64,000 nucleotides of DNA from Candidatus Heimdallarchaeum aukensis (GCA_021513695.1 CP084166.1:928001-992000), one strand, 5' to 3'. Shown: positions 26,991 to 60,095, numbered from the stretch's first letter. The notes: generated by a model from the sequence alone, not told the origin. Translations and numbers: made by a program.

Positions 26991-27002
26991 CGAAATGATG
27001 GA

Positions 27003-27031: not shown

Positions 27032-27073
27032 TAGAGGTAGAAGTAATGGTATTAAATTCTTGGTGAAATTGTA

Positions 27074-43278: not shown

Positions 43279-44042
43279 GGTAGTGTCTAGTTTTCTTCCG
43301 ACAAAAATATTTGTGGGGACTCTAATAGTAAGATATGAACATTCAAAAACTATCTACTCTTTTTAAGAGATGCAGAGTCCCCAAAAAGATAATAATAAAA
43401 GTTTTTTATGAATATATTGGTTCAAAGAATGGTTTGAGGACAGTAGCATGGAAGAATGGTTTAACACACCAAACATTATGGTATTGGGTAAAGAAGTTCA
43501 GGCTCTTTAGGAAAAGTTTACATAGAATTGTAGCAGAGAGAGGGGGAATACCAGAGATTATAGTAGTTGATGAGACGGAGATTAAGACCTCTCAAGGCTC
43601 AATGTATATGTGGTTCGCGTTAGATCCTTACAACAAGACTTTACTGGGTTTTAGTATTACTAAAGGACGGAGTAATCTTGAATGTTTACTAACTTTCCGT
43701 TATTGGCTCAAATGTTGGGGTTTTAAGCCCCGTATTGTCGTTACAGATGCAGGGGTATGGTATCCTGCCTTACTTCGTCTAGGTATCAAAATCTCCGTTA
43801 TCAAAGGTGGTTTACGCTCCTATATTGAACGTTTTAATGCTACTCTTAAGAGTTATCGTTGGTTTCATTCTATTCTCCACTGCACTTGTCCTATCCGTGC
43901 CGTCTATGGCTCTACTCATCTTTCTGGTTTTCTTACTCTCTTTATGCTCCATTATAATTTCGTTCGTCCTCATCAGAGCTTGGGACATCCTCCCCTTAGT
44001 TCCTTTTTACCTAGGAGGTGGTATAAAAACTAGACACTACCA
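43279..44042 (+). mobile_element. IS6-family-like insertion sequence (764 bp) with 16-bp perfect terminal inverted repeats GGTAGTGTCTAGTTTT. It carries a single DDE transposase.
   Basis: IRL GGTAGTGTCTAGTTTT lies at 43279-43294. IRR AAAACTAGACACTACC at 44027-44042 is its exact reverse complement. The size, single ORF and GG-start IRs fit IS6. No clear target-site duplication is visible. Confidence 0.75.
43335..44033 (+). CDS. DDE transposase (IS6-like), 232 aa.
   Basis: An N-terminal HTH (LTHQTLWYWVKKF). The catalytic D..D..E context is VVDETEI, VVTDAG and ERFNATLK. A C-terminal YNFVRPHQSLG motif. Its stop codon lies inside the IRR. Confidence 0.75.
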   Translation: MNIQKLSTLFKRCRVPKKIIIKVFYEYIGSKNGLRTVAWKNGLTHQTLWYWVKKFRLFRKSLHRIVAERGGIPEIIVVDETEIKTSQGSMYMWFALDPYNKTLLGFSITKGRSNLECLLTFRYWLKCWGFKPRIVVTDAGVWYPALLRLGIKISVIKGGLRSYIERFNATLKSYRWFHSILHCTCPIRAVYGSTHLSGFLTLFMLHYNFVRPHQSLGHPPLSSFLPRRWYKN

Positions 44043-44372
44043 AGAAAGCAGGTCCAAAAATTAATTTTTATTAATGTGGGGGTTTATGTCGGAATTATGA
44101 ACTATTTTCAGATTATAGACCCCCACAAAGTAAGAAAATTCATATCATTAATGAACCTTTCCTTAAGAAACTGGTGAAAAATGGACCGAGAGAAAGTAAG
44201 AGAGGGAGAAAGAGAATAGCAGAAAGGTGGGTAATACTGGCTTTAGCAATCATTGCTAGAATAGAAGTACAACTACTTTTTACTTTTTCGGACCGTTTAT
44301 TAGGTGAAAAAGAATTTTTGGACATGCTTAATAAGAAAAAAGAAAAATTAATTATTTAATATGTTTATTTTG

Positions 44373-46013
44373 TTATTCTTTTTTAGTCCATACATCAATT
44401 ACATCTTTAGATTTCTTGAGAGTTAAAGCGTAAAAGATAACTGCCAAAAAACCAAAAGAACCTGCAACTATCCAGAAAACATAAGGTTTTTGCATCTGTA
44501 TGTCTGTTCTTACATTCAATTTTATTTCTGTTACATCATGTATCCAGGATTTCCCATCTGAAACAGCTACTTTAATGTAATATGAACCAGGTTCTACACC
44601 ATCTAGATCCCACAAGAATGAAGAGTTGTTAACATTTGTTGCTAAAAGATCCCAATATATTCCATCTTGAGAAACAAAAATAGAAGCATTAAGTTTGTCA
44701 TTATCTTCATCTGATGCAATCCATTGAATAGTATAGTTATCAAATACTTGATTAGGGTCTGAAGGGTTTTTTACCTCAATATTAGGCAAATTATTAGTGT
44801 AAGTCAGTTGAGGATTTTCTGCAAGAAAAAGTAACGATGGAAAAATCAATTCACAATTACTAATCACTTCATCAGCATCTGGGTTAAAATAATCAGTCCA
44901 ATAAGAGTAACTGTTTGTTCCAAAAGTTTCAATTGTGAAGCTCTTAATGTTGTGATATAAATAAGAATAGTCTCCCCATTCTCCAGAAGTTATATAGCCA
45001 TAAATTGTATCATTCCATAGGGGAAAATTAAGGATCTCTTGTAATTCAAGTAATAGAGCGTTGAACTCTTTTTCATCTTTTTCTGGTAATGAACCATTAA
45101 TTCCCCAAGGTGCTATTATTGCTTCAACACCACTGTGTAAACTTACAGCAAAATTAAAAGAATGATTATACATGAAATTACGTAATGCTCTTGTTTCTGG
45201 TTCACTGAAGGGATAAGCGCCATGATATGTGTCATCTCTCCTAAATGGAGAAGCACCTTGGTCGCCCCAAAAAGCTCCATAATTCCTATTTAGGTCTACT
45301 CCTCCTGGTCTGTCTTCTCCAATGTACCCGCTTCCGTCAATGTCTTTTTCTTCGATGTCAGAGCTGTTTGTTTCAGTGTTCCAGAAATATACTCTCTCCT
45401 TTTCATCGTCTAAACTTCCATCAAGATCGTCATCAATTGGAGCCAAGTTTTTGCGTTGTTCTGGATACCAGTGTAAAATAGAGATACCATCAGGATTAAG
45501 CATGGGAATTACATAAATTTCTGTACTTTGAAGTAAGTAGTCAAAAATTGAATCATAAATTGTGTTAAATATAATCCAATCAATAAAGTATAGTGCATTT
45601 TCAACAGTAATTACTTCTCTAGCATGATGAGCTGCAACAATGTAATACTCAGTTTTAGCAGAAGTAACAGTTTCATCGGTTAAACGAACAGCCCAGATAG
45701 TTCTGTTTTCCCAAGTCTTCCCAATGGAAAAAACTTCCACTAATTCAGGAAAAGAATTATTCAGAATAATGAGTTTATTTGTAACTTCAGTGTAATTATG
45801 ATATGGTCCAAGTGATTCTCCCCAATAAACAAAATCTTCTCCTGGTATGTCAGAGGGAGCATTAGAAAACTCGTCCCAAATCCAAGAATATTCTGGTTCT
45901 TCTGCTAAATAAACATACTCTGGAGTATTCTTAGCAGAAATTGAAGATATTAAATGTGAGTTTAAGAATAAAACAATTACAATTAAGGAAATAACTTGAT
46001 ACTTTTTCATCAT
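44373..46013 (-). CDS. Secreted M14-family zinc carboxypeptidase-like protein with a C-terminal TM anchor.
   Basis: Signal peptide/TM at the N-terminus. HHAREVIT (an HxxE zinc-binding motif as in M14 HAREW). A C-terminal hydrophobic helix followed by KKSKD. Confidence 0.65.
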   Translation of the reverse strand: MMKKYQVISLIVIVLFLNSHLISSISAKNTPEYVYLAEEPEYSWIWDEFSNAPSDIPGEDFVYWGESLGPYHNYTEVTNKLIILNNSFPELVEVFSIGKTWENRTIWAVRLTDETVTSAKTEYYIVAAHHAREVITVENALYFIDWIIFNTIYDSIFDYLLQSTEIYVIPMLNPDGISILHWYPEQRKNLAPIDDDLDGSLDDEKERVYFWNTETNSSDIEEKDIDGSGYIGEDRPGGVDLNRNYGAFWGDQGASPFRRDDTYHGAYPFSEPETRALRNFMYNHSFNFAVSLHSGVEAIIAPWGINGSLPEKDEKEFNALLLELQEILNFPLWNDTIYGYITSGEWGDYSYLYHNIKSFTIETFGTNSYSYWTDYFNPDADEVISNCELIFPSLLFLAENPQLTYTNNLPNIEVKNPSDPNQVFDNYTIQWIASDEDNDKLNASIFVSQDGIYWDLLATNVNNSSFLWDLDGVEPGSYYIKVAVSDGKSWIHDVTEIKLNVRTDIQMQKPYVFWIVAGSFGFLAVIFYALTLKKSKDVIDVWTKKE

Positions 46014-46165
46014 TTGTTTTTTATTTCCAACGCTTAAAAATTATTTGAAAGATTTGAAAAAGACCAATTTTTTTGTTCTCTTTTCGATATTTTTCATTTT
46101 AGACGAAGAGAAAGTTTAAATAAGGGTTGTGCATAATTGTGTCATAATCAAGAATAATTCATAAG

Positions 46166-46414
46166 ATGAAGAAAATGAGTAAGGAAAAAATCTCAATATC
46201 AATAGATGCAAGAGGGAGTCATTGCCCTGGACCAATGATGGAATTAATTAAAGCCATAAGACAGGCAGAAGTTGGAGAAATTGTTGAGCTTTTGAGTTCA
46301 GAGGAAGGATCTTTAAGTGATATTCCTGCATGGATTGAAAAAGCGAAACATGAACTTGTTGATATGATAAAAGAAGACGGTTATAATCGTTTTCTAGTCA
46401 GAAAAACGAGGTAA
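46166..46414 (+). CDS. tusA: TusA-like sulfurtransferase (CPxP motif).
   Basis: RGSHCPGPMMEL. 82 aa. The real start is probably the ATG at 46178. Confidence 0.8.
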   Translation: MKKMSKEKISISIDARGSHCPGPMMELIKAIRQAEVGEIVELLSSEEGSLSDIPAWIEKAKHELVDMIKEDGYNRFLVRKTR

Positions 46415-46420
46415 AGATTA

Positions 46421-47563
46421 ATGAATAAAATTATAGTCATTGGTGGAGGATTTTCAGGTCTTACTATAGCTAACAAACTTGCAAAAAAAGCTAGAAAATA
46501 CAAGTTAGACATAACTCTGATCGAACCAAAAGACCATAATTTTTACGAGCCAGATCTGATTTTTTATGCATTTAACAATAAGAAACTGTCCAAGTTATAT
46601 AAACCGATGCATAAACTCGTGAGGAAAAGAGTTAATCACATTGGGATGCGGGCTAAAAAGGTCGAGACAGAGAAAAAGAAAGTAATATTAGAAGATGGGA
46701 CAGAGTTAGATTACGATTATCTAGTTCTTGCTACTGGAGTTAAATATATAGAAAAAGATTTCAAATATAGTGAACAAAAACACATTCATCACTTCTATAG
46801 CCCACCAGCAACAGAAAAGTTTAGACAAATGATAAAACGTTTTAAAGGAGGAACAATTGTTATCTCACCATCAACTGTGCCCTATAAATGTCCTCCAGCT
46901 CCTGTAGAATTCACTTTTATGTTAGATTCTTATTTAAAGAAAAGAAAGTTAAGAGACAAAGCAACGATAAAGTTTCTCTATCCTCTTTCTGTGCCTTTTA
47001 CAGTTAAAGAAGCTGCTGTTGTGGTAGCTGAGATGTATAAAAAAAGAGGAATAGAATTTGTTCCTTACTGTAATTACGAAAAAGTGGATATTGAGAACAA
47101 AAAATTCATCTCTTTTGAAGGAGAAGAGATAGAATACGATGAACTTGTACTGCTACCCATACATGAAGGTCAAGATATAATCAAAGAATCAGGTCTGGGA
47201 GATAAAGAAGGATATGTTCCTACAGACAAATTCACACTGCAAGTGAAAGGGCATCCAAATATATATGCTATCGGTGACTGTACAGATCTACCTACTTCTA
47301 AGGCTGGAGCAGTTTCTCATTATTCTGCACCTACTATCGTAAAAAATATTATTAACCAGATTAAAGGAAAAGAAGCTTCAGCAAAGTATAACGGAAAGAC
47401 AATTTGCTTCTTAGTAACTAGTTATCAAAAAGCAATGATGTTGGACTTTTCATATAACCATCCTTCAAGAAAGTATGGATTAATTCCAATGAGAATCTAT
47501 ATGCTCTTTAAAAGGCTATTTAGGTTCTTGTATTTTCATATATTAATTAAAGGAATAATATAG
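46421..47563 (+). CDS. FAD-dependent pyridine nucleotide-disulfide oxidoreductase, sulfide:quinone oxidoreductase (SQR)-like.
   Basis: N-terminal Rossmann fold IIVIGGGFSGLTIANKL. Other motifs are YKCPPAPVE and AIGDCTDLPTSKAG. It lies among tusA/dsrE genes. Confidence 0.65.
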   Translation: MNKIIVIGGGFSGLTIANKLAKKARKYKLDITLIEPKDHNFYEPDLIFYAFNNKKLSKLYKPMHKLVRKRVNHIGMRAKKVETEKKKVILEDGTELDYDYLVLATGVKYIEKDFKYSEQKHIHHFYSPPATEKFRQMIKRFKGGTIVISPSTVPYKCPPAPVEFTFMLDSYLKKRKLRDKATIKFLYPLSVPFTVKEAAVVVAEMYKKRGIEFVPYCNYEKVDIENKKFISFEGEEIEYDELVLLPIHEGQDIIKESGLGDKEGYVPTDKFTLQVKGHPNIYAIGDCTDLPTSKAGAVSHYSAPTIVKNIINQIKGKEASAKYNGKTICFLVTSYQKAMMLDFSYNHPSRKYGLIPMRIYMLFKRLFRFLYFHILIKGII

Positions 47564-47812
47564 GTGAAAAAAATGAGTGAAAATAAAATCACAAAAATAT
47601 TAGATGTAAAAGGGCTTAACTGTCCTTTACCAATTTTAAAAACAAAAAAAGCTATAAACGAAATTGAAGTTGGAGAAATAATAGAAGTTCTTGCCACTGA
47701 TCCAGGTTCAGTAAATGACTTTCAGGCATGGATTGAATCAACTGGACACGAACTAGTGGAATCTGCAGAAGAAAATGGCATTTTCCGCTATTTAATTAAA
47801 AAAACAAAATAA
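47564..47812 (+). CDS. tusA: TusA-like protein (second copy).
   Basis: GLNCPLP CPxP motif. Confidence 0.8.
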   Translation: MKKMSENKITKILDVKGLNCPLPILKTKKAINEIEVGEIIEVLATDPGSVNDFQAWIESTGHELVESAEENGIFRYLIKKTK

Positions 47813-47814
47813 AG

Positions 47815-48297
47815 GTGAAAAAAATGAGTGAAAAAAAGAAAAAAATAGCTATAATTGCTTCTAAAGCCAATTTAGCAGATGCTTACCCTCCTTTTATCTT
47901 AGCGTCTACAGCAGCTGCAATGGATTATGAAGTATCAATATTCTTTACTTTCTTCGGTCTTAATTTGCTTAAGAAAAAAGGATTGAAGAAAGTTAAGATT
48001 ACTCCTGTAGGAGAAACTGCAATGCCCATGCCTATTCCACAAATAGTTGGAATGCTTCCTGGAATGACTGACATGGCAACAGCAATGATGAAAAATTGGA
48101 TGAAAAAGGCCAATGTGGTCTCTTTAGAAGAGTTAAGAGAATTATCTCTAGAAGCTGGAGTAAAAATGATTGCTTGTCAAATGACAATGGACGTAATGAA
48201 AGTTAAAAGAGAAGAATTAATTGATGAAATAGAGGTTGGAGGAGCTGCCACTTTCCTACAATTTGCATCAGAAGCCGACATTACTTTATACATTTAA
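47815..48297 (+). CDS. DsrE/DsrF-like family protein.
   Basis: 160 aa of DsrE-like fold with a conserved Cys in MIACQMTM. Confidence 0.65.
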   Translation: MKKMSEKKKKIAIIASKANLADAYPPFILASTAAAMDYEVSIFFTFFGLNLLKKKGLKKVKITPVGETAMPMPIPQIVGMLPGMTDMATAMMKNWMKKANVVSLEELRELSLEAGVKMIACQMTMDVMKVKREELIDEIEVGGAATFLQFASEADITLYI

Positions 48298-48308
48298 CCT
48301 AGTTTGAA

Positions 48309-48695
48309 GTGATAAGGATGTCTGAACAAAAAAAGAAGATGATTATCGTTGTTACTAGAGGAGAAGAAAGTAAAGAAACCTTAGAACCTCCTCTTCATAT
48401 TGCAACTATGGCTGCTCTGTTAGATGCAGAAGTAAAGATGATATATACTGCTAAAGCCGGACTACTATTAAAGAAAGGTGTACCAGAAAAACTAATTCCT
48501 CAAGAAGGAAGACAACCATTGATAGAAACAATTCGAGAAGCAAAAGAAGCAGGTGTTCAAATATACGTATGCACCCCAGTGCTAGAATGGAATAAACTTA
48601 ATAAAGATGATTTCATAGAAGAAATAGATGGAATTGTCGGAGCAATGACTTTAGTTAAAGAGTCACTTGAAGCTAACTCGACAATATCATTCTAA
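48309..48695 (+). CDS. DsrE/DsrF-like family protein (second copy).
   Basis: 128 aa with a conserved Cys in YVCTPV. Confidence 0.6.
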   Translation: MIRMSEQKKKMIIVVTRGEESKETLEPPLHIATMAALLDAEVKMIYTAKAGLLLKKGVPEKLIPQEGRQPLIETIREAKEAGVQIYVCTPVLEWNKLNKDDFIEEIDGIVGAMTLVKESLEANSTISF

Positions 48696-49120
48696 TGAAG
48701 TGGAAAATAATGTCTCTCTCACTTAACTCGCTGTTATCCAAAGATATTACCTGCTTTGATGTAATAAAGAATCTTTTTGCCTTAACTGATAATGAAATTG
48801 ATGTTTTAGCTTGTATTAACCACCTTCAACCAGTAAGCATAGCTAGAATTACAGAAATAATACCCAAAGATAGAGCCACTATATCAAGATCTATCTCTAG
48901 ATTAATGAGCATCGGAGTTGTACGGAAAGAAAAAGAAAATTTGGAGAAAGGAGGATACCAATTTCTGTATAGTAGCTTACCTATGAACGAATTAAGAAAA
49001 TTTGTAAAAAGTACCTTGAATGCAATAATTGAAAATATGAGTATCGCAATGGATAACTTAACAAAAGAAAAATGTGAAGAAAAATTCCAAGAAGTAAAAA
49101 GGAAATACAGCAAAAAATAG
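48695..49120 (+). CDS. wHTH transcriptional regulator (TrmB/MarR-like).
   Basis: LACINHLQPVSIARITEIIPKDRATISRSISRLMSIGVV. Confidence 0.6.
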   Translation: MKWKIMSLSLNSLLSKDITCFDVIKNLFALTDNEIDVLACINHLQPVSIARITEIIPKDRATISRSISRLMSIGVVRKEKENLEKGGYQFLYSSLPMNELRKFVKSTLNAIIENMSIAMDNLTKEKCEEKFQEVKRKYSKK

Positions 49121-49236
49121 ATTTCCTTTAACAATTTTCCTTTACATTTTTGTTGGTTAACGTTTTATAAAATAGTTATCCTTTTCATTTTATAGATAAA
49201 AGAATTCAAAAAAACTCTTATATTAAATCTTTTTTT

Positions 49237-49521
49237 TTGAGTAAACAAGAAAATAGTGTGATAATAATGACAGAAGTAGATCTAAATAAAATCAAAGCGC
49301 ATCATATTGTAGATGCTAGAGGTTCAGCATGTCCTGGACCATTATTAGAAGCAAAGAAAGGAATCTCAAAGGTTCCCAAAGGAGGAGTCCTTGAAGTTCA
49401 ATCTAGCGACCCTGGTACAAAAAATGATCTTCCTGCATGGTGTAGACGAGCAGGACATAAATTTTTGGGCGTTTTAGAAGCAGATGGATATGATAGAGTT
49501 TTCATTCAAAGACTAAAATAG
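49237..49521 (+). CDS. tusA: TusA-like protein (third copy).
   Basis: RGSACPGPLLEA CPxP motif. Confidence 0.8.
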   Translation: MSKQENSVIIMTEVDLNKIKAHHIVDARGSACPGPLLEAKKGISKVPKGGVLEVQSSDPGTKNDLPAWCRRAGHKFLGVLEADGYDRVFIQRLK

Positions 49522-49563
49522 AATATTCCTTTTTTTATTAAATTTTAAAAAAAATAAAAAGAA

Positions 49564-50001
49564 TTATATTAAGATATTTGCTTTTGCTTTTGTTGCTGCT
49601 TCAATATATGAAGCTATACCAGAAATTTCATCTACAAGATCAGAGAAATCATCTTCTGGGATATCAAAAAGTGGGATCATGTTAGAACAAGCAATTATTT
49701 TAACATTTCCTGACTCTTTTGCTTTCTTAAGAGCTGCTCTCCAATTACCTAGTCCTTTTTCTTTCATATTTTTGCGCATCAGTTCCTCATAAGGTTGTCC
49801 CTCTATACTTACTGGAAAATGATCTGGTGCGCCTTTTCTAAAAGCATGAGTTCCCCAAAAAGCTAGAAAAATATGTACATCATAATCCATTGCAATAGCT
49901 CCATTTGTTATTGTTGCAAGAGCTATGAGTTTTTCTTCTGTTCCAGAGGTTACCATTATACTAAATAATTCTCTTTCTTCTGACATAATAAACCACATCA
50001 C
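49564..50001 (-). CDS. DsrE/DsrF-like family protein (third copy).
   Basis: 145 aa with a conserved Cys in IIACSNM. Confidence 0.6.
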   Translation of the reverse strand: MMWFIMSEERELFSIMVTSGTEEKLIALATITNGAIAMDYDVHIFLAFWGTHAFRKGAPDHFPVSIEGQPYEELMRKNMKEKGLGNWRAALKKAKESGNVKIIACSNMIPLFDIPEDDFSDLVDEISGIASYIEAATKAKANILI

Positions 50002-50210
50002 ACTGGTTGCGTGTCCAGATTCACAACTGGCATTTTAAAGATTTTGTAGTTTTTATAACAATAAAAATATTTTTTAATAGATTACGAATTGTTTTTTATA
50101 ATAAGCTCTTTTTATAATTGGCTTTTATCTTAACATATATGCTTTTTTAGTTTATTATCGCTCTATAATTTAAAAAAAATTATTATATCTTTTAAAAATT
50201 TTATTCCAAC

Positions 50211-50630
50211 ATGCAACAAAATGCAAAAAGACAAAAAATTAAAACCAAGAAGATTCTGATTATAACAACAAACGATATTTCTTATCTTGGTGCAGACACA
50301 GCAGGACAGCAACATCTAAAGTATTCAGAAGATGCTCTGATAATACGTGTTCCTGATCCTGTAATTTTTCCACCTGATTTTTATGTGAGAACATTAGAGA
50401 AAGGATTTGGGGGGATAATTGTAGCTTCTGCTGGTGATGAATCTCCTTTCTTGAATTCTCATGCCAGATTAGCGAAGAATATTGATGCTGCTTATAAAAT
50501 AATGAATGAAAAAGGAATTGACACAAAAAGGCTTGTTCTTACAGCCATTTGTAGCATTTGTGCAGGAAGTTTTATCAAAGCTGTTAACAACATGACTAAA
50601 TATTTAGACAGTGTTCATGAGCAAGAGTAA
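50211..50630 (+). CDS. MvhD/FlpD-like iron-sulfur protein (methyl-viologen-reducing hydrogenase delta-subunit domain).
   Basis: 139 aa. ILIITTNDISYLGADTAG .. TAICSICAGSF, typical of MvhD. Confidence 0.7.
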   Translation: MQQNAKRQKIKTKKILIITTNDISYLGADTAGQQHLKYSEDALIIRVPDPVIFPPDFYVRTLEKGFGGIIVASAGDESPFLNSHARLAKNIDAAYKIMNEKGIDTKRLVLTAICSICAGSFIKAVNNMTKYLDSVHEQE

Positions 50631-50643
50631 AGAGGAGAGATAA

Positions 50644-51927
50644 ATGAAAAATTATGATGCTTTAGTGATTGGAGCAGGGATCTCTGGTATTCAGACTGCG
50701 TTAGATCTAGCAGAACAGGGATTTAAAGTATTAATGATTGATAAAAAGAAAAGTACGGGAGGAGTAATGATTCAATTAAGTAAAGTTTTTCCGACTTTAG
50801 ATTGTGCATCTTGTATTACTACTCCCAAGATGAGTGAAGCGAGTAATCACCCAAATATAGAAACATGGACATTAAGTGAAGTTACAAGCATTAGTGAAAA
50901 TAACGGTTCTTATGTAGTAAATATACTCAAACACCCGCGATATGTAGATCTTGTAAAATGTACTGGTTGTGGAATATGTGAAGAAGTTTGTCCTGTAATA
51001 GTTGAAGATGAATATAATGAATACTATGGAATAAGGAAAGCTGTGGGTGTACCCTTTGGCACTGCAATTCCTCAAAAGGCAGTGTTAGAACCAGAATATT
51101 GCATTTTTTGTGGGGCTTGTGCGAAAAAATGTCCTACACAAGCAATTGAGTATGATCAAGAGCCAGAAAACATAGAAGTTAAAGTAAAAGCTGTAATTGT
51201 TGCTACAGGTTTTGAACAAACGCCAATAAAAGAAGAATATGGGGGAGGACGGTATAAGAATGTAATCAATGCCCTTACTATGGAAAGGCTTTTAGCTCCA
51301 ACAAGTCCTTTTGGTGGAGTTTTTCGCCCAGGAGATGGCAAGAATCCCTATTCTATTGCTTATATTCAATGCGCTGGTTCAAGAGATGCGAGTATTGGTG
51401 TTCCTTATTGTTCTAGAGTCTGTTGTATGTTCGCAGTGAAACAAGCCATGTTACTCTGCGGAGCAGCACCTTTAGCTGATATTACAATCTACTATATGGA
51501 TATCCGAGCTTTTGGTAAAAGGTATGAAGAGTTCTTCCAAGAAGCAAGAGAAATGGGTATAAATTTTGTTAAAGGTAAAGTCGCAAAAATAGAAGAACTG
51601 GAAAATGGTAATCTTAAGCTTAGAGTAGAGGTTCAAGAAGAGGAAGATTATGGAGTTAAGGAAATAGAACATGAACTTGTTGTTTTATCATCTGGAATGC
51701 TTCCCGCTTGGAAACCTGAAAAAGTGAGAGAAATATTACCGCTTGAAATCCACAAGTATGGTTTTATTAAAAGTCTACAACCACATGTAAATCCGTCTCA
51801 AACTAATTTAGATGGAATATTTGTTTCAGGAACAGCTATGGCCCCAATGGATATTGTAGATTCAATTTATAGCGGTAGTACAGCAGCAATGAAAGCTGCT
51901 TTGTACATTAAGAAAATTAAGGAGTAG
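50644..51927 (+). CDS. HdrA-like flavoprotein (QmoA-like): an FAD/TrxR fold with an inserted 2x[4Fe-4S] ferredoxin.
   Basis: VIGAGISGIQTALDLAEQG. CTGCGICEEVCP and CIFCGACAKKCP. The HdrA signature CAGSRD..YCSRVCC. Confidence 0.8.
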   Translation: MKNYDALVIGAGISGIQTALDLAEQGFKVLMIDKKKSTGGVMIQLSKVFPTLDCASCITTPKMSEASNHPNIETWTLSEVTSISENNGSYVVNILKHPRYVDLVKCTGCGICEEVCPVIVEDEYNEYYGIRKAVGVPFGTAIPQKAVLEPEYCIFCGACAKKCPTQAIEYDQEPENIEVKVKAVIVATGFEQTPIKEEYGGGRYKNVINALTMERLLAPTSPFGGVFRPGDGKNPYSIAYIQCAGSRDASIGVPYCSRVCCMFAVKQAMLLCGAAPLADITIYYMDIRAFGKRYEEFFQEAREMGINFVKGKVAKIEELENGNLKLRVEVQEEEDYGVKEIEHELVVLSSGMLPAWKPEKVREILPLEIHKYGFIKSLQPHVNPSQTNLDGIFVSGTAMAPMDIVDSIYSGSTAAMKAALYIKKIKE

Positions 51928-51930
51928 ATC

Positions 51931-53958
51931 ATGATGTCAGAGAAAGTGAAAATCGGAGTTTATGTTTGTCATTGCGGCTTCAACATAGCTGAAATGGTAG
52001 ACGTAAAAAAAGTTGCTGAAGTGTTGGGAAAAGAAGAAGATGTGGAAGTTGCAAAAGATTTTATTTTTATGTGTTCTGACGCTGGGCAAAAGATGATTGA
52101 AAATGATATCAAAGAAAAGGGAATAAATAGGGTTATTGTTGCATCATGTTCTCCACTATTGCATGAAAAAACATTTCAAGGTGTTTTGGAGCGTGCAGGG
52201 CTAAATAAATTCCTCTTTGAACACATAAACATTAGAGAGCAAGTAAGTTGGGTAAGTAAAAACAAAGAGTCGGCTACAGAAAAGGCTATTCGTTTAATTA
52301 GAGGAGGAATAGCGAAAATACGGAAACAACAAGCTCTTGAACCAATTCTAAAGAAAGTGACTAAAAGTGTAGCAGTTATAGGAGGAGGAGTTGCAGGGCT
52401 AATTTCAGCAAAGAATTTGGGTGAAATGGGCGTTGATGTAACATTAATAGAAAAAAGTCCTTTTATTGGAGGAATGGTTGCAAGATGGGATAAATTGTTT
52501 CCAAACGATGAAAATGCTCAAGACATAGTTCGTAAACTAATAGAAGAAGTAAAAGATAATAAACATATACGGATTCTTACTAATTCTCAGATAGTGGGAG
52601 GAAAAGGGAGTTTAGGTGGATATTCTGTCACAATAGAGACAATTTCCAGAGGAATCAAAAGACTTCCAGAGAATATAGAAAACATTCTTTCTTCTTGCCC
52701 CATAGAAATAGACTCTCCTGAATCTTTTGGGTTAGAAAAAAGAAAAATTGTTTACAAACCAGAATACATATGCTATCCTGAAGAATATGCCATAGATTGG
52801 GATAATCTATCTGATGCAAAAGAACTAGAGAAATACAAAAAATGGGTTAAAGAGTCTAATCTTGAAGAAAAATTTGAATTAGAAAAAACAGTAACAAAAG
52901 AAGAAATTAATGTGGGAGCAATAATATTCGCTACTGGTTTTGAACCTTATGAACCTTATGAGGGAGAATATGGGTGGAAGAAGCATCCAAATGTTGTTAC
53001 TTTGCCACAATTAATAGAAATTCTAAAAAGAGTAGACAAAAATCAAACTCATTTCGTTTATAATGGGAAGGAAATTAAATCTGTAGCCTTTATTCATTGT
53101 GTTGGAAGTAGACAAATAGAAGGAGAAGATATCCCAGGACCTGATGGAAAGCTAAATACTTACTGCTCACGATATTGTTGTAATGCTACTATACATACAG
53201 CCAATGAATTGAAGAAACTTTACCCAAATTTACACGTTTATGAATTCTATCGTGATATTCGTACATATGGTCTTGACGATGAGGATATGTATACTAAAGC
53301 TTCCAAGAACGATGTTATATTTTTGAGATTTAACAATGAGTATAAACCAGAAGTTCAGATTTTAGAGAATGAAAAGTATAATTTTGTTATATCTGTAAAA
53401 GATCAATTAAGTTACTACGAAGAAGTTGACATACCAGCGGATATGGTAGTGTTAAGTGTTGGAATGGTTCCTCCACAGATAGATGATCTAGTATCTATTT
53501 TCACTGTCTCAAGAGGAAATGATGGTTTCCTACTTGAAGCTCATCCAAAACTAAAACCTGTTGAAACTTCTTCTGGTATTTTCCTTGCTGGAACAGCGCA
53601 AGGACCTATGAATGCAAGTGAAGCTGCTGCAGGAGCTACAGCAGCTGCAGTTAAAGTAGCAGCAGTGGTTTCTAAAGATGAGCTAGCTTTATCTCCATTT
53701 ATTGCTCGTGTTGACATTACAAAATGTGATGCTACTGGAAAATGTGTTGAAGTGTGTGAATATAATGCTATTGAAGTAACTGAGGTTGAAGTCGAAAAAG
53801 GAAAAGTGGAAAGAAAAGCGCAAGTTAATCCTACTTTATGTGTAGGAGGAGGAACATGTGTAAGCGCATGCCCTAACCAAGCTATTCGCATTGTTGGATG
53901 GACGAACGAGCAAATTGAAGATATGATTACTGCGATGATCAAGGAGGTTAAAGAATAA
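51931..53958 (+). CDS. HdrA-like flavoprotein (QmoB-like, full-length HdrA architecture).
   Basis: N-terminal IGVYVCHCGFNIAEMVDV. FAD motif VAVIGGGVAGLISAKNLGEMG. CVGSRQ..YCSRYCC. A C-terminal 2x[4Fe-4S] region (CVEVCEYNAI, CVGGGTCVSACP). Confidence 0.8.
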   Translation: MMSEKVKIGVYVCHCGFNIAEMVDVKKVAEVLGKEEDVEVAKDFIFMCSDAGQKMIENDIKEKGINRVIVASCSPLLHEKTFQGVLERAGLNKFLFEHINIREQVSWVSKNKESATEKAIRLIRGGIAKIRKQQALEPILKKVTKSVAVIGGGVAGLISAKNLGEMGVDVTLIEKSPFIGGMVARWDKLFPNDENAQDIVRKLIEEVKDNKHIRILTNSQIVGGKGSLGGYSVTIETISRGIKRLPENIENILSSCPIEIDSPESFGLEKRKIVYKPEYICYPEEYAIDWDNLSDAKELEKYKKWVKESNLEEKFELEKTVTKEEINVGAIIFATGFEPYEPYEGEYGWKKHPNVVTLPQLIEILKRVDKNQTHFVYNGKEIKSVAFIHCVGSRQIEGEDIPGPDGKLNTYCSRYCCNATIHTANELKKLYPNLHVYEFYRDIRTYGLDDEDMYTKASKNDVIFLRFNNEYKPEVQILENEKYNFVISVKDQLSYYEEVDIPADMVVLSVGMVPPQIDDLVSIFTVSRGNDGFLLEAHPKLKPVETSSGIFLAGTAQGPMNASEAAAGATAAAVKVAAVVSKDELALSPFIARVDITKCDATGKCVEVCEYNAIEVTEVEVEKGKVERKAQVNPTLCVGGGTCVSACPNQAIRIVGWTNEQIEDMITAMIKEVKE

Positions 53959-54260
53959 TGTCTGAAGAAAAATATGATTATCGAACAGCCCTAAAAAAGC
54001 TGAAAGAAAAAATGGGTGGAACAAAAGCTGAATTGTTAGAGAGAAACAAGCAAAGAAACAAAGACAAGAAACTAGTGGTACAAGCAATTAAGGAGGGTCT
54101 TTCAACTGTTCCTAAGGTTGCAGAGAAAACTGGTCTTCCAACAGATAGGGTGTTTTCTATAATTAACCAACTAGTAAAATATGAAGGGCTTGTGATGAAA
54201 GACAAGCGAAGCGAATATCCTGTGTATGGTTTTGTAGAAGAAGGTGAAAAAGATGAGTAA
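53958..54260 (+). CDS. Small wHTH-like protein (100 aa) between the HdrA-like and HdrC/E-like genes.
   Basis: An ORF translationally coupled on both sides. Confidence 0.4.
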   Translation: MSEEKYDYRTALKKLKEKMGGTKAELLERNKQRNKDKKLVVQAIKEGLSTVPKVAEKTGLPTDRVFSIINQLVKYEGLVMKDKRSEYPVYGFVEEGEKDE

Positions 54261-55473
54261 TATTACAGTTGATCTAAATCTAATTAAAGAAATTAAAAAA
54301 TATGGAGCATTTGATGTCTCTGCTTGCTTTAACTGCGGAACATGTACAGCAATTTGTCCTTTGACTGATGAAGAAGGTAATTTTCCAAGACGTATTATTA
54401 GATATGCACAATTAGGTCAAAAAGAAAAACTTGAAGGTTCAAAAGAGTTATGGTTATGTTATTACTGTGGTGAGTGTTCTGACACTTGCCCTCGTGAAGC
54501 AGATCCAGGAGAGTTCATGATGTCAGCAAGGAGATATGCAATAGCTAGTTATGATCCTACAGGTATCTCCAAACTTCTTTACAAATCTAAACTTTTTTCT
54601 GGTTTTATGGTCGCTTTAGTAGCATTTTTGGTAGGATTGGCTTTTTACATTGTACGTGGAAATGAGGTACACGCAGATTCTTTGCTTTTTGAAATCGATC
54701 CTGCTTATATTCATTGGGGTGGTTATGCTCTTATGGCATTTTTAGCCATAGTTGTAGTTGCTGAACTGTGGAAAATGACGACTAGGATTTATAAGAAGGA
54801 AAAAGAAAAACTGGAGAAAGAAGGAGTAGAAATAGATGAGAAAATTTTTCCAAAGCTTGTTAGATGGGTGAAAAATGCGTTTAACATTGTATTTGTTGAA
54901 TTTATAGCTCAAAAAAGATACTTTAGAAGAGAAAAAGTTGAAGAAGAAAAATGGATTTTTTCTAAATGGTTTATTCACTTAAACATAGTTCTTGGTTTTT
55001 CTGGATTATTTGTGGCAACTGCACTAGATTTCTTTTTAGATATTATAAACGTAAAGAAAACTCCAATCGGTGCAGTACCTTTATTCTATCCCACAAGATT
55101 GTTAGGAACAATTGCTGGATTAATGTTACTATATGGAATAATTCTCGCTTTCTTCTTTAGACTTAAGAAACAAGACTCTTCAAGAGAACATTCACGATTT
55201 TCTGATTGGTTTCTTTTATCCTTGCTTTTTGGACTAGCTGTTTCAGGATTTATACTAGAAATTCTAGTCTACTTTCCTTTAGCTAATGAACAATTTGCTT
55301 TCTGGACTTTTATTGTGCATGTGGTTTTTGCTGTAGAGATGATTATTTTTGCACCATTTTCAAAACTTGCTCATCTTATGTATAGAACCTATGCTCTTTG
55401 GATTTACAAAAATTTACAAACAGCACCCAAAAAATATCCAGAAATAGCTGATCTAATAATATATGAAGATTAA
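54244..55473 (+). CDS. HdrC-like 2x[4Fe-4S] domain fused to an HdrE/NarI-like membrane domain (QmoC-like).
   Basis: CFNCGTCTAICP and CYYCGECSDTCP, followed by 5-6 TM helices with conserved His residues. The real start is probably the ATG at 54256. Confidence 0.7.
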   Translation: MKKMSNITVDLNLIKEIKKYGAFDVSACFNCGTCTAICPLTDEEGNFPRRIIRYAQLGQKEKLEGSKELWLCYYCGECSDTCPREADPGEFMMSARRYAIASYDPTGISKLLYKSKLFSGFMVALVAFLVGLAFYIVRGNEVHADSLLFEIDPAYIHWGGYALMAFLAIVVVAELWKMTTRIYKKEKEKLEKEGVEIDEKIFPKLVRWVKNAFNIVFVEFIAQKRYFRREKVEEEKWIFSKWFIHLNIVLGFSGLFVATALDFFLDIINVKKTPIGAVPLFYPTRLLGTIAGLMLLYGIILAFFFRLKKQDSSREHSRFSDWFLLSLLFGLAVSGFILEILVYFPLANEQFAFWTFIVHVVFAVEMIIFAPFSKLAHLMYRTYALWIYKNLQTAPKKYPEIADLIIYED

Positions 55474-55497
55474 AGAGAAAATCTTTTTCTCTTTTTT

Positions 55498-56217
55498 TTA
55501 GAATTTTCCAAGATAATTTTCAATTTCTGGAACTTCTGACAATTTGGAAGAAGGACCAAAAAATAGTGTTTCTCCCCTATTTAGAAACAGAACATTGTCA
55601 GACCAATTTTCAATTAATAATCGTGAATGACTAGTAAAAATTAATGTCTTACCTTTTTCAATCACATCTTTTTCCAAAATTTCCTGCAAGGATTTTCTAG
55701 TTGGATAATCAATATTAGCAAAAGGTTCATCCAAAACAATTATTGAAGGATCCATAACTAAAACTCCTGCAATAGCTACTCTTTTCCTTTGCCCAAAAGA
55801 GAGTCTGAAAGGAGAATGATCCTTATATTCTCTTAAATCCACAATTTCCAAAGCTTTTTCTACTTTTTCTTCCACTTCTTCTTCAGTAAAACCTAAATTC
55901 CTAGGCCAAAAGGCTACATCTTCATATACGCTTGCAGAAAAAACTTGTGAATCAGGGTTTTGAAAAACGAATCCTACTCTTTTTCTAATTTCTTTAATTG
56001 TTTCTCTATTTAATTCAAGTTCTTGAACCTTTATTCTTCCTTTCTGGTGAAATTCAAGTCCAAGTAGTAATCTTAACAGAGTTGTTTTACCAGCTCCATT
56101 ATTTCCACAAATAGCAAATTTTTCTCCAATATTAATTGTAAAAGAGAGATTCTTTAACGCAAAAGATTTGTCTGGATACTCAAAGTGAACGTTTTCAAAA
56201 ACTATTTCATGATGCAT
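55498..56217 (-). CDS. cbiO: ECF/cobalt ABC transporter ATPase (CbiO-like).
   Basis: ICGNNGAGKTTLLR, LSFGQRKRV and VLDEPFANID. Confidence 0.8.
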   Translation of the reverse strand: MHHEIVFENVHFEYPDKSFALKNLSFTINIGEKFAICGNNGAGKTTLLRLLLGLEFHQKGRIKVQELELNRETIKEIRKRVGFVFQNPDSQVFSASVYEDVAFWPRNLGFTEEEVEEKVEKALEIVDLREYKDHSPFRLSFGQRKRVAIAGVLVMDPSIIVLDEPFANIDYPTRKSLQEILEKDVIEKGKTLIFTSHSRLLIENWSDNVLFLNRGETLFFGPSSKLSEVPEIENYLGKF

Positions 56218-56984
56218 TTTTGAATAATACCTCCTGATATTAGACTAAAAAGAGTACTAATGAAAATGAGAAAAAGAAAATCTGCAATTGTTACTCTTTC
56301 TCGTTTTATAAGTAAATTATCTTCTAAACCTCGAAGAACCATTGCTTCGTAAACCTCTGTTCCATGTTTAATAGATTTTATAAGAATCCCACCCATCAAA
56401 GCCGCAGCAGCTTGAAACTTCCTTTTTCTTGATGCAGAATCTAATCCTCTCATCTTTTGAGCTGTTCTAATGTTTTCTCCTTCTTCAACAAGAAGAGGAG
56501 TATAACGCAACATAAGTAAAATGATAGTAACAATAATATTAGGAATAAAAAGACTGCGAAGACTCTGAATAAATTGTTGCATTGTCACACAAGTCGTATA
56601 CAGAGTAATTACAGAAACAGAGAAAATACCTCTAACCCAGATAAATAGAGCTCTATTTAATCCGTCGGAATAAATCTCAAAATTAATACCAATAAAGGAA
56701 TTTGAATAAATTACTTCTCCAAGTTTTAGAAATAAAGATGGAATACCTAAAAAGAAAATTAAAACTGAAGCTGGAATTATAAGCCTAATAGTTCTTACAA
56801 TTGAAGCTTTTATTGACAAAAAGAAAATTAAGGCTCCTAAGTAAATAATAAAAATGTTAAACAAATTGTTACTTAATAAAAATAAAACGATTACTAATAT
56901 GGTAAAGATAAGTAGTGCAACAGAAGAGAATATTCTCTGATTTTTCTTATCACTAAATGGAAATAAAAATTTTGTATTGTTCAT
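56202..56984 (-). CDS. cbiQ: ECF transporter transmembrane (T) component, CbiQ-like.
   Basis: A polytopic membrane protein that overlaps cbiO and lies next to cbiM. Confidence 0.7.
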   Translation of the reverse strand: MNNTKFLFPFSDKKNQRIFSSVALLIFTILVIVLFLLSNNLFNIFIIYLGALIFFLSIKASIVRTIRLIIPASVLIFFLGIPSLFLKLGEVIYSNSFIGINFEIYSDGLNRALFIWVRGIFSVSVITLYTTCVTMQQFIQSLRSLFIPNIIVTIILLMLRYTPLLVEEGENIRTAQKMRGLDSASRKRKFQAAAALMGGILIKSIKHGTEVYEAMVLRGLEDNLLIKRERVTIADFLFLIFISTLFSLISGGIIQKCIMK

Positions 56985-57051
56985 CGCTTATTCTCTTTTT
57001 GCTTATAAAGAAAAAAAAATAAAGAGTTATTAACTCTTACTTTTTTTAAGA

Positions 57052-58053
57052 TTATTCACCTTTTTCTTGGACAGCTTTTTGTCCTTTTTTGAATTTATAA
57101 AGCCTGAATCTGTAAAGTAAGTAGCTAAATCCAATTAGTACGAAGAAGAGTATGATCATTACAATTGCCATAGCCAAGATATCCCAACCTAACCCTTCAG
57201 GAAAGCCAAATATTCCGGATTCAAGAACTGTAACATCGATACCATTTTCAGAAAGAACTTCAAAAGTTTTCTCTAGTCCATCAGGATTACTGCTGGCTAC
57301 TATACCAAAAATAGACATTACGGCAAAAGAAGCAAAAGTAGCAATACCCGCCCAAATAGGTATTCTAAATTTGGGTTCTGCTTCTTCAGTTCTTTTGGTA
57401 AAGAATAAGGCACTTCTTGCATCTTCGAATAAACTTGGTTCTGCTCTGAAAACAAAGAAAACTATAGCAAAAGTGATTAAACCCTCAGCTACCCCAATTA
57501 TTGAATGTAAGATTAGCATCCATGAGAATATTAGACCTGCAGCTGCACTCTGAGCAAGAGTAAGCTCAATTGAAGCAAATAAAGCCATACATATTGTTGA
57601 AAAGAAAGCAGCGATTCCAGCAGCAATGGCAAACTTCTTTCTATCTTCCTTCCATTTATCAGGTAGGAAATAGTAAATTGCATAAGTAGTAAAAGCACCT
57701 ATTATAGCCATGTTAATAACATTGGCACCATAAGCTAAGAAACCTCCATCTCCAAACATTGCTTGAACAATGAGTATTGAAGAGATGATGAGTATACCAA
57801 CCCATGGGCCAACAAGCGTCGTAGCTAAAGCTGTTCCTATTAAATGTCCGCTTGAACCAAAAGGAACAGGAAAGTTAAACATCTGTGCGGCGAATAATCC
57901 TGCAGCTAAAACTCCTACTAGAGGAATTTGCTTCATCGTTAATCTTGATCTACTTTGCCATATGGCAACTAGTATCATGATTACGGCAATAACTAAATAG
58001 ACAATTGCTTGTCCTATCGGTAAGATTCCATCAGGCATGTGCATGAGTAACAC
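57052..58053 (-). CDS. cbiM: Cobalt/nickel ECF transporter substrate component CbiM, with a C-terminal CbiN-like extension.
   Basis: The N-terminal MHMPDG (the Met-His N-terminus characteristic of CbiM) implies that the real start is the 4th codon, at 58044. The CbiM core has ~230 aa and is followed by ~100 extra aa with TM helices. Confidence 0.8.
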   Translation of the reverse strand: MLLMHMPDGILPIGQAIVYLVIAVIMILVAIWQSRSRLTMKQIPLVGVLAAGLFAAQMFNFPVPFGSSGHLIGTALATTLVGPWVGILIISSILIVQAMFGDGGFLAYGANVINMAIIGAFTTYAIYYFLPDKWKEDRKKFAIAAGIAAFFSTICMALFASIELTLAQSAAAGLIFSWMLILHSIIGVAEGLITFAIVFFVFRAEPSLFEDARSALFFTKRTEEAEPKFRIPIWAGIATFASFAVMSIFGIVASSNPDGLEKTFEVLSENGIDVTVLESGIFGFPEGLGWDILAMAIVMIILFFVLIGFSYLLYRFRLYKFKKGQKAVQEKGE

Positions 58054-58165
58054 CTTTTTTGAATTCGTGTTACCAGATTTTATCTAATATATAAATCTAT
58101 TGGAAAAGAGTAGAGCAAAGAGAAAAGAAAAAAAAATAAATAAAGTTGAAAAATAGAACAAAAAT

Positions 58166-58861: not shown

Positions 58862-58911
58862 CTCAGTATTATTTGTGATTATAAAGAAGGTAAAAAAAAT
58901 TTTGTGGTTAA

Positions 58912-59391: not shown

Positions 59392-59560
59392 AAAATCACC
59401 ATGTTATGTTGTTAATCAACATGTAGGGTCTCTACATATAAAGTTTACTCTTAAACGCTTGAATGATGAATGGAAGAAAATTGTAAATCTGAAAAATTGT
59501 TTTAAAAAATCCAATTTTAAGATAAATCTAAAAAAGAAAAAGTTAGAGAAAAGTTAAGTT

Positions 59561-60085: not shown

Positions 60086-60095
60086 TTTTATCCCT

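Follow-up and report, generated by a model that had tools for sequence, protein, structure and literature searches.

A Qmo-like gene cassette linked to TusA and DsrE sulfur carriers in Candidatus Heimdallarchaeum aukensis and in many bacterial loci

What does a membrane-anchored, Qmo-like redox module do in an archaeal genome when its closest neighbors encode sulfur carrier proteins? Complexes of the Qmo/Hdr type have a central part in how anaerobes conserve energy, and the question is raised by a gene island at positions 46166 to 55473 of a 64,000-nucleotide (nt) stretch of the Candidatus Heimdallarchaeum aukensis genome (GCA_021513695.1, CP084166.1:928001-992000), the whole of which is referred to here as the window. 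The island encodes TusA and DsrE carriers, an SQR-like flavoprotein, an MvhD-like protein, two HdrA-like flavoproteins, and a QmoC-like membrane anchor (Table 1). Its Qmo-like part is one member of a large uncharacterized family of cassettes, and this copy stands out for being archaeal, for lying beside the SQR operon of its lineage, and for having a natural deletion counterpart. Our reading, in which we place about even confidence, is that the cassette encodes a reversible oxidoreductase that couples quinone and ferredoxin to sulfane sulfur bound to TusA/DsrE, and that it is Qmo-like without being canonical QmoABC.

Gene calls were based on a map of open reading frames (ORFs) combined with Pfam and NCBIfam scans, and the gene map together with a comparison with relatives splits the island into two modules. 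Module A (46166-49120) runs in the order TusA, SQR, TusA, DsrE2-like, DsrE, and a Cys-rich winged helix-turn-helix (wHTH) regulator. Module B (49237-55473) comprises TusA-3, a DsrE gene on the minus strand, the MvhD-like gene, a short HdrA, a long HdrA, a protein of 100 amino acids (aa) that we call p100, and the QmoC-like anchor. An earlier note on this stretch had described a single island in an unusual arrangement. All 12 genes that it listed are present where it placed them, with p100 overlooked, but neither the unity nor the rarity of the island survived the comparison: the SQR/TusA/DsrE/wHTH operon stands alone in Heimdallarchaeia, the Qmo-like part is deleted in a relative, and the combination of TusA, an MvhD-like protein, two HdrAs, and a QmoC-like anchor (with or without DsrE) recurs across numerous loci from bacteria and metagenomes and in other Heimdall genomes. 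The same note had reported that HdrB, AprAB, and Sat are absent from the window, which is borne out by family scans of ORFs of at least 100 aa (no match to HdrB, AprAB, Sat, or Dsr) and by six-frame ORFs of at least 60 aa (no CCG tripeptide and no PF02754 match). Its attribution of the DNA to an Asgard archaeon also holds, because the best named homologs of QmoC and SQR belong to Candidatus Heimdallarchaeaceae.

All three TusA proteins score 73-91 bits against PF01206, above the gathering score, and each carries the active-site cysteine of the CP(G/L)P motif (Cys20, Cys20, and Cys32, respectively). The ORFs at 46166, 47564, 47815, and 54244 open with (A/G)TG AAA AAA ATG ("MKKMS..."), and the one at 48309 opens with "MIRMS...". 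As orthologs are three residues shorter, the true starts are probably the internal ATG codons 9 nt downstream, with the A-rich triplets forming part of the leader.

Module B proved to be a recurring cassette. When metagenomes were scanned with a QmoC profile, 600 stretches matched, of which 474 encode relatives, and 80 loci were fetched; a scan of a genome collection with the single QmoC protein gave six loci. The window proteins were then mapped onto all fetched loci with phmmer. Where 6.3 kb or more of upstream sequence is available (23 loci), every locus encodes the MvhD-like protein and the long HdrA, and 22 each encode TusA and the short HdrA; DsrE is present in 17 of the 20 loci having both flanks. 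In 22 of the 23 cassettes a TusA gene lies ahead of the MvhD-like gene, and among the window proteins it is TusA-3 that phmmer matches best to this TusA; Cys32 of TusA-3 is invariant (28/28). The module B DsrE has an ortholog at the same place in another Heimdall locus (L002, 127 bits), with Cys105 kept in five of five sequences. We detected p100 by phmmer in 12 of the 23 full cassettes, and a small ORF occupies the same position in some further ones. Another Heimdallarchaeaceae contig has the same gene order, read there as DsrE (minus strand), TusA, MvhD, HdrA, HdrA, a 100-aa protein, and QmoC, and large bacterial contigs, including those of Anaerolineales, share this order and add a small DsrE gene after QmoC. 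No homolog of SQR or of the module A regulator was found in any of the 94 loci that were compared, so modules A and B are independent units. A recent horizontal transfer of module B was considered and rejected, its GC content (0.33-0.35) being the same as that of its flanks.

The cassette comes in two variants. Variant (a), the type seen in the window, combines a short HdrA of approximately 430-470 aa with p100. In variant (b), the "short" HdrA has grown to 905-933 aa through a GltD/NfnB-like NAD(P)H flavoprotein module (PRK12771, 471 bits; gltA, 315 bits) inserted in its ferredoxin domain. Loci of this type (L008, L020, L022, L023, L048, L053, L062, L067, L069, L076, and L089) carry a DsrE2-like gene between the MvhD-like gene and HdrA where the upstream flank is present, except that the gene lies before MvhD in L048 and that no such gene was detected at this place in L008. 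The flanks of the bacterial cassettes, from which 103 ORFs were scanned, most often encode LysR (seven) and ArsR (six) regulators, class-I pyridine-nucleotide disulfide oxidoreductases (four), rhodanese (four), thioredoxin (three), and the YeeE/YedE sulfur transporter (two); Apr, Sat, and Dsr are not among the families listed for these ORFs. In the open-access literature, to which our search was confined, we found no description of this cassette, of the TusA/DsrE/MvhD-like linkage, or of the CxxC subfamily described below.

The two HdrA-like proteins share out between them the parts of a single HdrA. Both match methanogen HdrA structures at approximately 400 bits, the long HdrA over the full length of 5odc_A, 8rvu, and others, compared with 105-113 bits to the sHdrA structure 6tjr and 158-251 bits to Qmo-like paralogs of Desulfobacterota; core identity to methanogen HdrA is 36-45%. 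Residue alignments and family-wide cysteine counts showed that the flavin adenine dinucleotide (FAD) core, the characteristic [4Fe-4S] motif, and the ferredoxin domains of HdrA are all present but divided over the two subunits. The HdrA-type cluster is found in both (C390, C412, C416, and C417 in the long HdrA; C243, C256, C260, and C261 in the short one). The N-terminal cluster domain (C13, C15, C48, and C73) and the ferredoxin domain at the C terminus (C599, C605, C609, C637, C643, and C647) are present in the long HdrA and absent from the short HdrA. Conversely, the short HdrA, a FAD/TrxR-like core, has an intact inserted 2x[4Fe-4S] ferredoxin domain with all eight cysteines (C106-116 and C153-163), which in the long HdrA is degenerate and Cys-free. 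The DCxxC pair equivalent to Cys197 of methanogen HdrA is likewise kept in the short HdrA (C54 and C57), where it is invariant along with the cysteines of the inserted domain and of the HdrA-type cluster, and is replaced by DENAQ in the long HdrA, with no aligned cysteine in 42 of 42 members.

In HdrA, Cys197 of one subunit ligates the N-terminal cluster of its partner, and where tandem HdrAs have lost the N-terminal domain and Cys197 in a complementary way, heterodimers are implied (Chadwick et al., PMC9012536). The cassette pair shows the same complementary pattern, which by analogy suggests that the short and long HdrAs would form an obligate heterodimer. A neighbor-joining tree (349 shared columns, no bootstrap or support values) places the cassette short HdrAs in one clade, sister to methanogen HdrA (44.6% identity to 5odc), the cassette long HdrAs in a second clade (35.7% identity), and the Desulfobacterota Qmo-like paralogs in a third. 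The Heimdall sequences group together within each cassette clade, and the short- and long-HdrA clades are parallel in topology. The HdrAs of the window thus fall in cassette-specific clades, and the window has no HdrB; the earlier note had held that its reading would be refuted by clustering with canonical methanogen-type HdrA and an HdrBC encoded just outside the window.

The MvhD-like protein departs furthest from its known relatives. In a residue-by-residue alignment to the solved chains 9sw2_D and 9sfi_K, every canonical [2Fe-2S] cysteine is replaced (CCNWC by TTNDI, MC by PD, and GCHHGDCH by SAGDESPF). Near the C terminus the protein carries instead a CxxC motif (C114 and C117) that all 27 cassette members share without exception, even the ones that have no further cysteine. 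The earlier note's view of a QmoB from which MvhD had been split off therefore holds as to the separate gene and fails as to a simple split, since all cluster ligands have been lost and an invariant CxxC gained. An exhaustive profile search of 1.84 billion representatives returned 405 MvhD-like relatives at E <= 1e-3, many of them fragments or frameshifted ORFs (a word-indexed homolog search with the MvhD-like protein gave three proteins). Among matches that cover both halves of the protein, aligned with MAFFT, the CxxC and the canonical cysteines hardly ever occur together. Because the other cysteines of MvhD-like members vary from zero to three, bacterial ones included, the CxxC is kept independently of any four-Cys cluster site. 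We conjecture that it is a candidate site of thiol or persulfide exchange.

The QmoC-like anchor scores 216.9 bits against the qmoC model NF038018, which is its best NCBIfam match but has a cutoff of 300. It has eight invariant Fe-S cysteines and a membrane domain with a NarI/EtfD-like helical fold in an AlphaFold2 (AF2) model built from 56 sequences (predicted local distance difference test score [pLDDT], 83.6). The histidines that the earlier note had singled out for inspection as potential heme ligands are conserved: H245, H359, and H377 are invariant and also kept in the Desulfobacterota paralogs, and the conservation of H157 across the cassette type is 90% or more. H359 and H377 are 18 residues apart, the same spacing as that of the two heme ligands on helix V of NarI. 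The small protein p100, whose gene is translationally coupled to those of the long HdrA and QmoC on either side, is Cys-free, measures approximately 90-100 aa across the family, and has conserved tyrosines (Y75, Y87, and Y90). It gave weak matches to HTH_20, ArsR, and PF0610_N in 10-11 of 21 members and a helical single-sequence AF2 model (pLDDT, 70; wing unmodeled). It would be either a subunit or an in-operon regulator.

A close relative provides a natural counterpart without the cassette. Over 13 kb, the nucleotide sequence of the Heimdallarchaeaceae genome L097 is approximately 84% identical to that of the window, and in blastn alignments window positions 44333-49296 correspond to L097 7919-12872 and positions 55319-63307 to L097 12877-20921, both at approximately 84%. 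The interval in between is exactly absent from L097, with the left breakpoint inside TusA-3, and at the junction (12872/12877) a 72-aa chimeric ORF has formed from ~60 nt of the 5' end of TusA-3 and ~155 nt of the 3' end of QmoC. As the junction keeps remnants of both genes, it points to a deletion in L097 (or an assembly collapse) and not to an insertion in the window, and module B is therefore a dispensable unit. The deletion could itself be an assembly artifact. The SQR (306 aa) and small DsrE (75 aa) of L097 are also truncated. Just outside the synteny block that starts at 44333, the window holds a 232-aa ORF (43335-44033) with no Pfam match at 1e-5, which may be an insertion-sequence-like gene.

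Module A is a conserved operon in its own right. SQR is reported to be widespread in Heimdallarchaeaceae, mostly as type III, in a study that makes no mention of TusA and DsrE and from which we take the subtype III label used here (PMC11193907). In the window, SQR sits in a fixed TusA-SQR-TusA-DsrE2-DsrE-wHTH operon, and the same six genes occur in the same order in three Asgard genomes (L095, L096, and L097), at loci from which module B is absent. The TusA-1 position is held by a 79-aa TusA in all three, and the wHTH gene ends the operon in each. An M14 peptidase gene lies upstream in L095 and L097, as in the window, and CbiMQO genes lie downstream in L096, with CbiQ and CbiM called in L097. 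The SQR protein aligns over residues 3-378 to human SQOR (6oi5, 163 bits), with a FAD fold and with catalytic cysteines (C157 and C329) and C-terminal amphipathic, membrane-binding helices that align to their human counterparts. Its score of 341 bits against the type III model NF049943 is below the cutoff of that model for a selenoprotein subtype, and orthologs with 50-68% identity are found in Heimdallarchaeaceae, Hodarchaeales, and other Asgard metagenome-assembled genomes (MAGs). The DsrE2-like protein clearly matches PF13686 and falls marginally below the cutoff of NF047629 (205.4 bits versus 210); its single Cys121 is invariant in 19 of 19 relatives, as is Cys88 of the small DsrE in 18 of 18 aligned small DsrEs. 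In the wHTH regulator, C20, C40, and C127 are invariant in four Heimdall orthologs, a three-Cys pattern that suggests a thiol- or persulfide-sensing switch. In L096 (GCA_013166775.1, 1-8603), operon A adjoins a divergently transcribed cluster that encodes HdrC, HdrB (CCG), a flavoprotein of 427 aa, proteins resembling NuoF and NuoG, MvhD, and both subunits, small and large, of a [NiFe] hydrogenase.

How might the two modules work together? In module A, a membrane-associated SQR would oxidize sulfide and deliver the electrons to quinone, the sulfane sulfur would be passed to TusA/DsrE carriers, and the three-Cys winged-helix regulator would control the operon; both modules would share these carriers and the quinone pool. 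In module B, the HdrA heterodimer would contain one complete bifurcation-type flavin site acting as a three-way junction. The QmoC-like subunit, with two [4Fe-4S] clusters and heme b, would form the high-potential branch to quinone/quinol, a position taken elsewhere by HdrC and HdrB. The low-potential branch to ferredoxin would be the ferredoxin domain inserted in the short HdrA, which is also where variant (b) has its NAD(P)H module. The C-terminal ferredoxin domain of the long HdrA would face the MvhD-like protein, which would occupy the port used by the hydrogenase in Mvh-Hdr. Junction, branches, and docking are drawn by analogy from the Mvh-Hdr structure as summarized in PMC9012536. The reaction would be the reversible conversion TusA/DsrE-persulfide + 2e- <-> carrier thiol + H2S, which we propose because carrier-bound sulfur would be a mid-potential partner of menaquinone and ferredoxin.

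Standard potentials are approximately -74 mV for menaquinone, -270 mV for S0 or persulfide/HS-, and -450 mV for ferredoxin, with NAD(P) at -320 mV. With sulfide at or below 1 mM, the potential of the sulfur couple increases to approximately -180 mV or above, so for the ferredoxin-linked type the reductive, confurcating direction is favored, in our judgment by a slight margin at physiological sulfide. In this mode, electrons from menaquinol and reduced ferredoxin would be confurcated onto sulfane sulfur, and the complex would serve as a cytoplasmic terminal reductase for sulfur derived from S0, polysulfide, thiosulfate, or SQR. A confurcation model has long been discussed for Qmo and adenosine 5'-phosphosulfate (APS) reductase. 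The mode proposed here parallels that model, the arrangement of operon A beside an HdrCB/hydrogenase cluster in L096, and the idea of Hdr-dependent reduction of TusA/DsrE persulfides put forward independently in a preprint on a cultured Asgard archaeon. A bolder extension, which we consider rather doubtful, is that the cassette represents a new class of flavin-based bifurcating enzyme, a carrier-persulfide/sulfide:quinone and ferredoxin (or NAD(P)) oxidoreductase in which the cluster-less MvhD-fold CxxC protein would be loaded by TusA and DsrE and would replace the thiol/disulfide chemistry of HdrB.

Several observations weigh against the proposal of a quinone- and ferredoxin-coupled enzyme for carrier-bound sulfur. 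The nearest cassette-bearing relative (L004, 61% QmoC identity) lacks both TusA and DsrE in the vicinity of its cassette and is the sole carrier-less exception, and in the window the minus-strand DsrE gene separates TusA-3 from the MvhD-like gene, so that co-transcription of the two is not guaranteed. Module B has no recognizable active site for sulfur chemistry, there being no HdrB/CCG domain, and we infer the function of every cassette member from sequence and models. The CxxC could instead supply trans ligands to Fe-S clusters of the long HdrA, which is possible because the two C-terminal ferredoxin motifs of that protein in the window (CDATGKCVEVC and CVGGGTCVSAC, three cysteines each) are both one cysteine short; the cysteine missing from the second motif is present in 39 of 42 long-HdrA relatives. 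The assignment of four heme ligands is incomplete, as the Desulfobacterota Qmo-like paralogs used for contrast lack an equivalent of H157. The proposal also presupposes a quinone pool in the host, sequence does not reveal which way the reaction runs, and an adjacent SQR, which makes both quinol and sulfane sulfur, would render the reductive mode partly futile if the two ran together.

A rival reading is that the same complex acts on the same substrate in the oxidative direction, bifurcating electrons from sulfide (or carrier thiol plus sulfide) to quinone and ferredoxin, or to NAD(P)+ in variant (b), so that the cell would gain low-potential reductant from sulfide in parallel to SQR. The cassette does adjoin a sulfide-oxidizing SQR operon with the same types of carriers, the TusA/MvhD-like pair is placed at the electron-donor port of Mvh-Hdr, sulfide at standard potentials lies almost midway between menaquinone and ferredoxin, and with NAD(P)+ as the low-potential acceptor this is the sole exergonic direction under standard conditions. 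However, millimolar or lower sulfide shifts the couple upward and turns the ferredoxin-linked reaction toward reduction, the main known role of TusA and DsrE is to supply enzymes with sulfane sulfur, the rhodanese and YeeE of bacterial flanks mobilize sulfur, and the window has no evident sink for carrier persulfide or oxidant for quinol; overall, we regard oxidation as fairly unlikely. A non-respiratory role in homeostasis under stress from reactive sulfur species, in which excess persulfide is removed or persulfidated or oxidized carrier thiols are repaired with any reductant at hand, with quinone purely as the electron dump and with p100 or the wHTH protein as persulfide sensor, would fit the ArsR/LysR regulators, thioredoxin, and flavoprotein disulfide reductases around bacterial cassettes, the Cys-rich and small winged-helix proteins within the island, the dispensability of the cassette in a relative, and the common view of SQR as a detoxifying enzyme. 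Yet for simple detoxification, an HdrA heterodimer that has seven cofactors, a membrane anchor, and an intact low-potential branch is elaborate machinery, NAD(P)H persulfide reductases of a simple kind exist for that task, and such a role seems improbable.

The remaining alternatives would make the carriers bystanders. Ordinary QmoABC serving AprAB and Sat encoded elsewhere, with TusA and DsrE as unrelated neighbors, would explain the shared subunit architecture (two HdrA paralogs and an HdrC-cytochrome b fusion) and qmoC as the best NCBIfam match; some Heimdall MAGs are reported to have Sat and AprB-type assimilatory genes, and Vulcanisaeta and Ammonifex are described as having both Apr and a "type II" Qmo (PMC10504309). 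This explanation is made very improbable by the QmoC score well short of the model cutoff, the absence of apr and sat from the window and of Apr, Sat, and Dsr from the families listed for the flanks, the TusA linkage in nearly all full cassettes, the separate and cluster-less MvhD, and the dispensability of the cassette in a sister genome. Equally at odds with the carriers being substrates is an H2- or formate-linked Mvh/Hdr-type bifurcating complex with its hydrogenase encoded elsewhere and quinone replacing heterodisulfide. Membership of the FlpD/MvhD family, the strong matches of both HdrAs to methanogen HdrA, and the genuine MvhD-[NiFe] hydrogenase-HdrCB cluster beside the same SQR/TusA/DsrE operon in L096 speak for it, but without any canonical [2Fe-2S] ligand the MvhD-like protein cannot relay electrons in the canonical way, no hydrogenase genes occur in the window or in the cassette loci whose called genes were examined, and the conserved neighbors are TusA and DsrE. 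We give it hardly any weight.

A reversible oxidoreductase acting on carrier-bound sulfur thus remains our preferred reading of the cassette, and the near-constant linkage with TusA, DsrE, and the CxxC MvhD-like gene turns it into a testable substrate hypothesis, namely, carrier-bound sulfane sulfur. If true, a widespread cytoplasmic, quinone-linked sulfur redox reaction would be added to the sulfur cycle, and metabolic models would be refined for Heimdallarchaeia, the closest archaeal relatives of eukaryotes, for which hydrogen-sulfur syntrophy is debated. Were the cassette a new bifurcating class as well, many anaerobes and Heimdall-type Asgard archaea would possess an energy-coupled cytoplasmic sulfur step that annotation has missed.

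TABLE 1 Genes of the island and the interval absent from a related genome (window coordinates)
Feature	Coordinates	Strand	Evidence	Remarks
TusA-1, module A gene 1	46166..46414	+	PF01206, 6.8e-21	Single Cys20 in CPGP; likely start 46175
SQR-like flavoprotein (type II/III-like)	46421..47563	+	NF049943, 341 bits; human SQOR 6oi5, 163 bits	
TusA-2	47564..47812	+	PF01206, 5.1e-26	Cys20 in CPLP; kept in L095-L097
DsrE2-like sulfur carrier	47815..48297	+	PF13686, 7.8e-53 (179 bits); NF047629, 205.4 bits (cutoff 210)	
Small DsrE-family sulfur carrier	48309..48695	+	PF02635 and PF13686	
TrmB/MarR-type winged-helix regulator, module A	48695..49120	+	Pfam TrmB, MarR, HVO_A0114	Likely start M6
TusA-3, cassette type	49237..49521	+	PF01206	Cys32
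DsrE-family carrier, module B	49564..50001	-	PF13686, 2.8e-18	Divergent from MvhD-like gene
MvhD/FlpD-like protein	50211..50630	+	PF02662, 2e-15	CxxC (C114, C117)
Short HdrA (QmoA-like), 427 aa	50644..51927	+	399.5 bits to HdrA 5odc_A residues 146-567	
Long HdrA (QmoB-like), 675 aa	51931..53958	+	~400 bits to HdrA 5odc_A, 8rvu	No fused MvhD
p100, 100-aa small winged-helix protein	53958..54260	+		Overlaps both neighbor genes
QmoC-like anchor, 409 aa	54244..55473	+		HdrC-like 2x[4Fe-4S] and six-helix membrane domain; likely start 54253
Interval missing from Heimdallarchaeaceae genome L097	49297..55318		blastn	Bounds of module B as a dispensable unit

The rest of the window has a varied content. 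Other ORFs of at least 100 aa encode a cobaltochelatase, an ABC uptake set, transporters, an M14 peptidase, a thiamine-binding protein, PadR, and CopD, and Rfam and tRNA scans of the window gave no matches. A CobN and ChlI/VWA-type chelatase pair lies beside a FecCD/ABC/periplasmic-binding-protein uptake system (1095-9894), and a CbiMQO transporter (55498-58053) was identified through synteny with related loci; with these genes the window is rich in cobalt- and corrinoid-related functions. A type I-B CRISPR-Cas system (cas6, cas8b, cas7, cas5, cas3, cas4, and cas1, with cas genes at 20023-28591) is accompanied by two arrays (10342-16420 and ~28650-33583) of the same 29-nt repeat, ATTTTCACACTACTTAGTTCAGCTTAAAC, with 93 copies in one array and approximately 70 in inverted orientation in the other. 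Between the first array and cas6 lie two overlapping minus-strand ORFs of approximately 500 aa (16570-18075 and 18047-19525), for which NCBIfam gave no match at 1e-5.

Where, then, does the cassette stand among known systems? With the sHdr sulfur relay, as in the dsrE3A-dsrE2B-tusA genes of Metallosphaera cuprina (PMC4175335, PMC11094781), it shares TusA and DsrE2/DsrE carriers beside an Hdr-type complex, but it lacks sHdrB1B2/CCG, LbpA, and an sHdrA-type flavoprotein and is linked to membrane and quinone; no lipoate-binding protein was found among the scanned window ORFs of at least 100 aa. An sHdr identity was rejected because CCG domains are missing and sHdrA is matched weakly, and with HdrB absent module B is neither Hdr nor sHdr. 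The HdrABC-MvhAGD complex of methanogens (PDB 5ODC, 8RVU, and 7BKB) has the same set of HdrA domains, Cys197 as a ligand in trans, a domain of the HdrC type, and a protein of the MvhD fold. In the cassette, by contrast, the HdrA functions are split over two subunits, there is neither HdrB nor hydrogenase, HdrC forms one protein with a membrane cytochrome b, and MvhD has no [2Fe-2S] ligands. The tandem or fused heterodimeric HdrAs of anaerobic methanotrophic archaea (ANME) and the Moorella MetFV-HdrABC-MvhD complex (PMC9012536) differ in their partners, which are HdrBC, MetFV, or Fdh and not a QmoC-like anchor with sulfur carriers.

Closest in kind are the Qmo-type modules. A "type II" Qmo is described from Vulcanisaeta moutnovskia and Ammonifex degensii, with QmoA and QmoB closer to typical HdrA than to bacterial type I QmoAB (Chernyh 2020; Neukirchen 2023). 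Judged by its description, it may resemble the cassette in this closeness to HdrA and in being found in organisms without Dsr or Apr, where such modules have no assigned function (PMC10504309). Five Desulfobacterota loci (L010-L014, from Desulfatiglandales/Desulfobacteraceae MAGs) were dropped as references for canonical Qmo, since their QmoC (202 bits) is below the qmoC cutoff and their neighbor is a FixC-like flavoprotein and not AprAB; they served solely as other Qmo-like paralogs. These loci encode a QmoB-like protein with a fused VhuD/MvhD domain, beside the FixC-like flavoprotein and ABC exporters. The earlier note's general idea of a quinone-linked redox system for carrier-bound sulfur stands. 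The cassette is not a canonical Qmo, given the QmoC score, the missing linkage to Apr, and HdrAs nearer to those of methanogens. Compared with QmoABC itself, the cassette is linked to TusA and DsrE in place of aprBA and sat, its QmoC falls under the NF038018 cutoff, it has an extra small winged-helix gene, and the MvhD-like domain found at the C terminus of canonical QmoB is a separate, upstream, cluster-less gene product with a CxxC. What the two have in common is the core of the complex, that is, two tandem HdrA paralogs and a fusion of an HdrC-like 2x[4Fe-4S] domain to a NarI-like cytochrome b that dispenses with HdrB.

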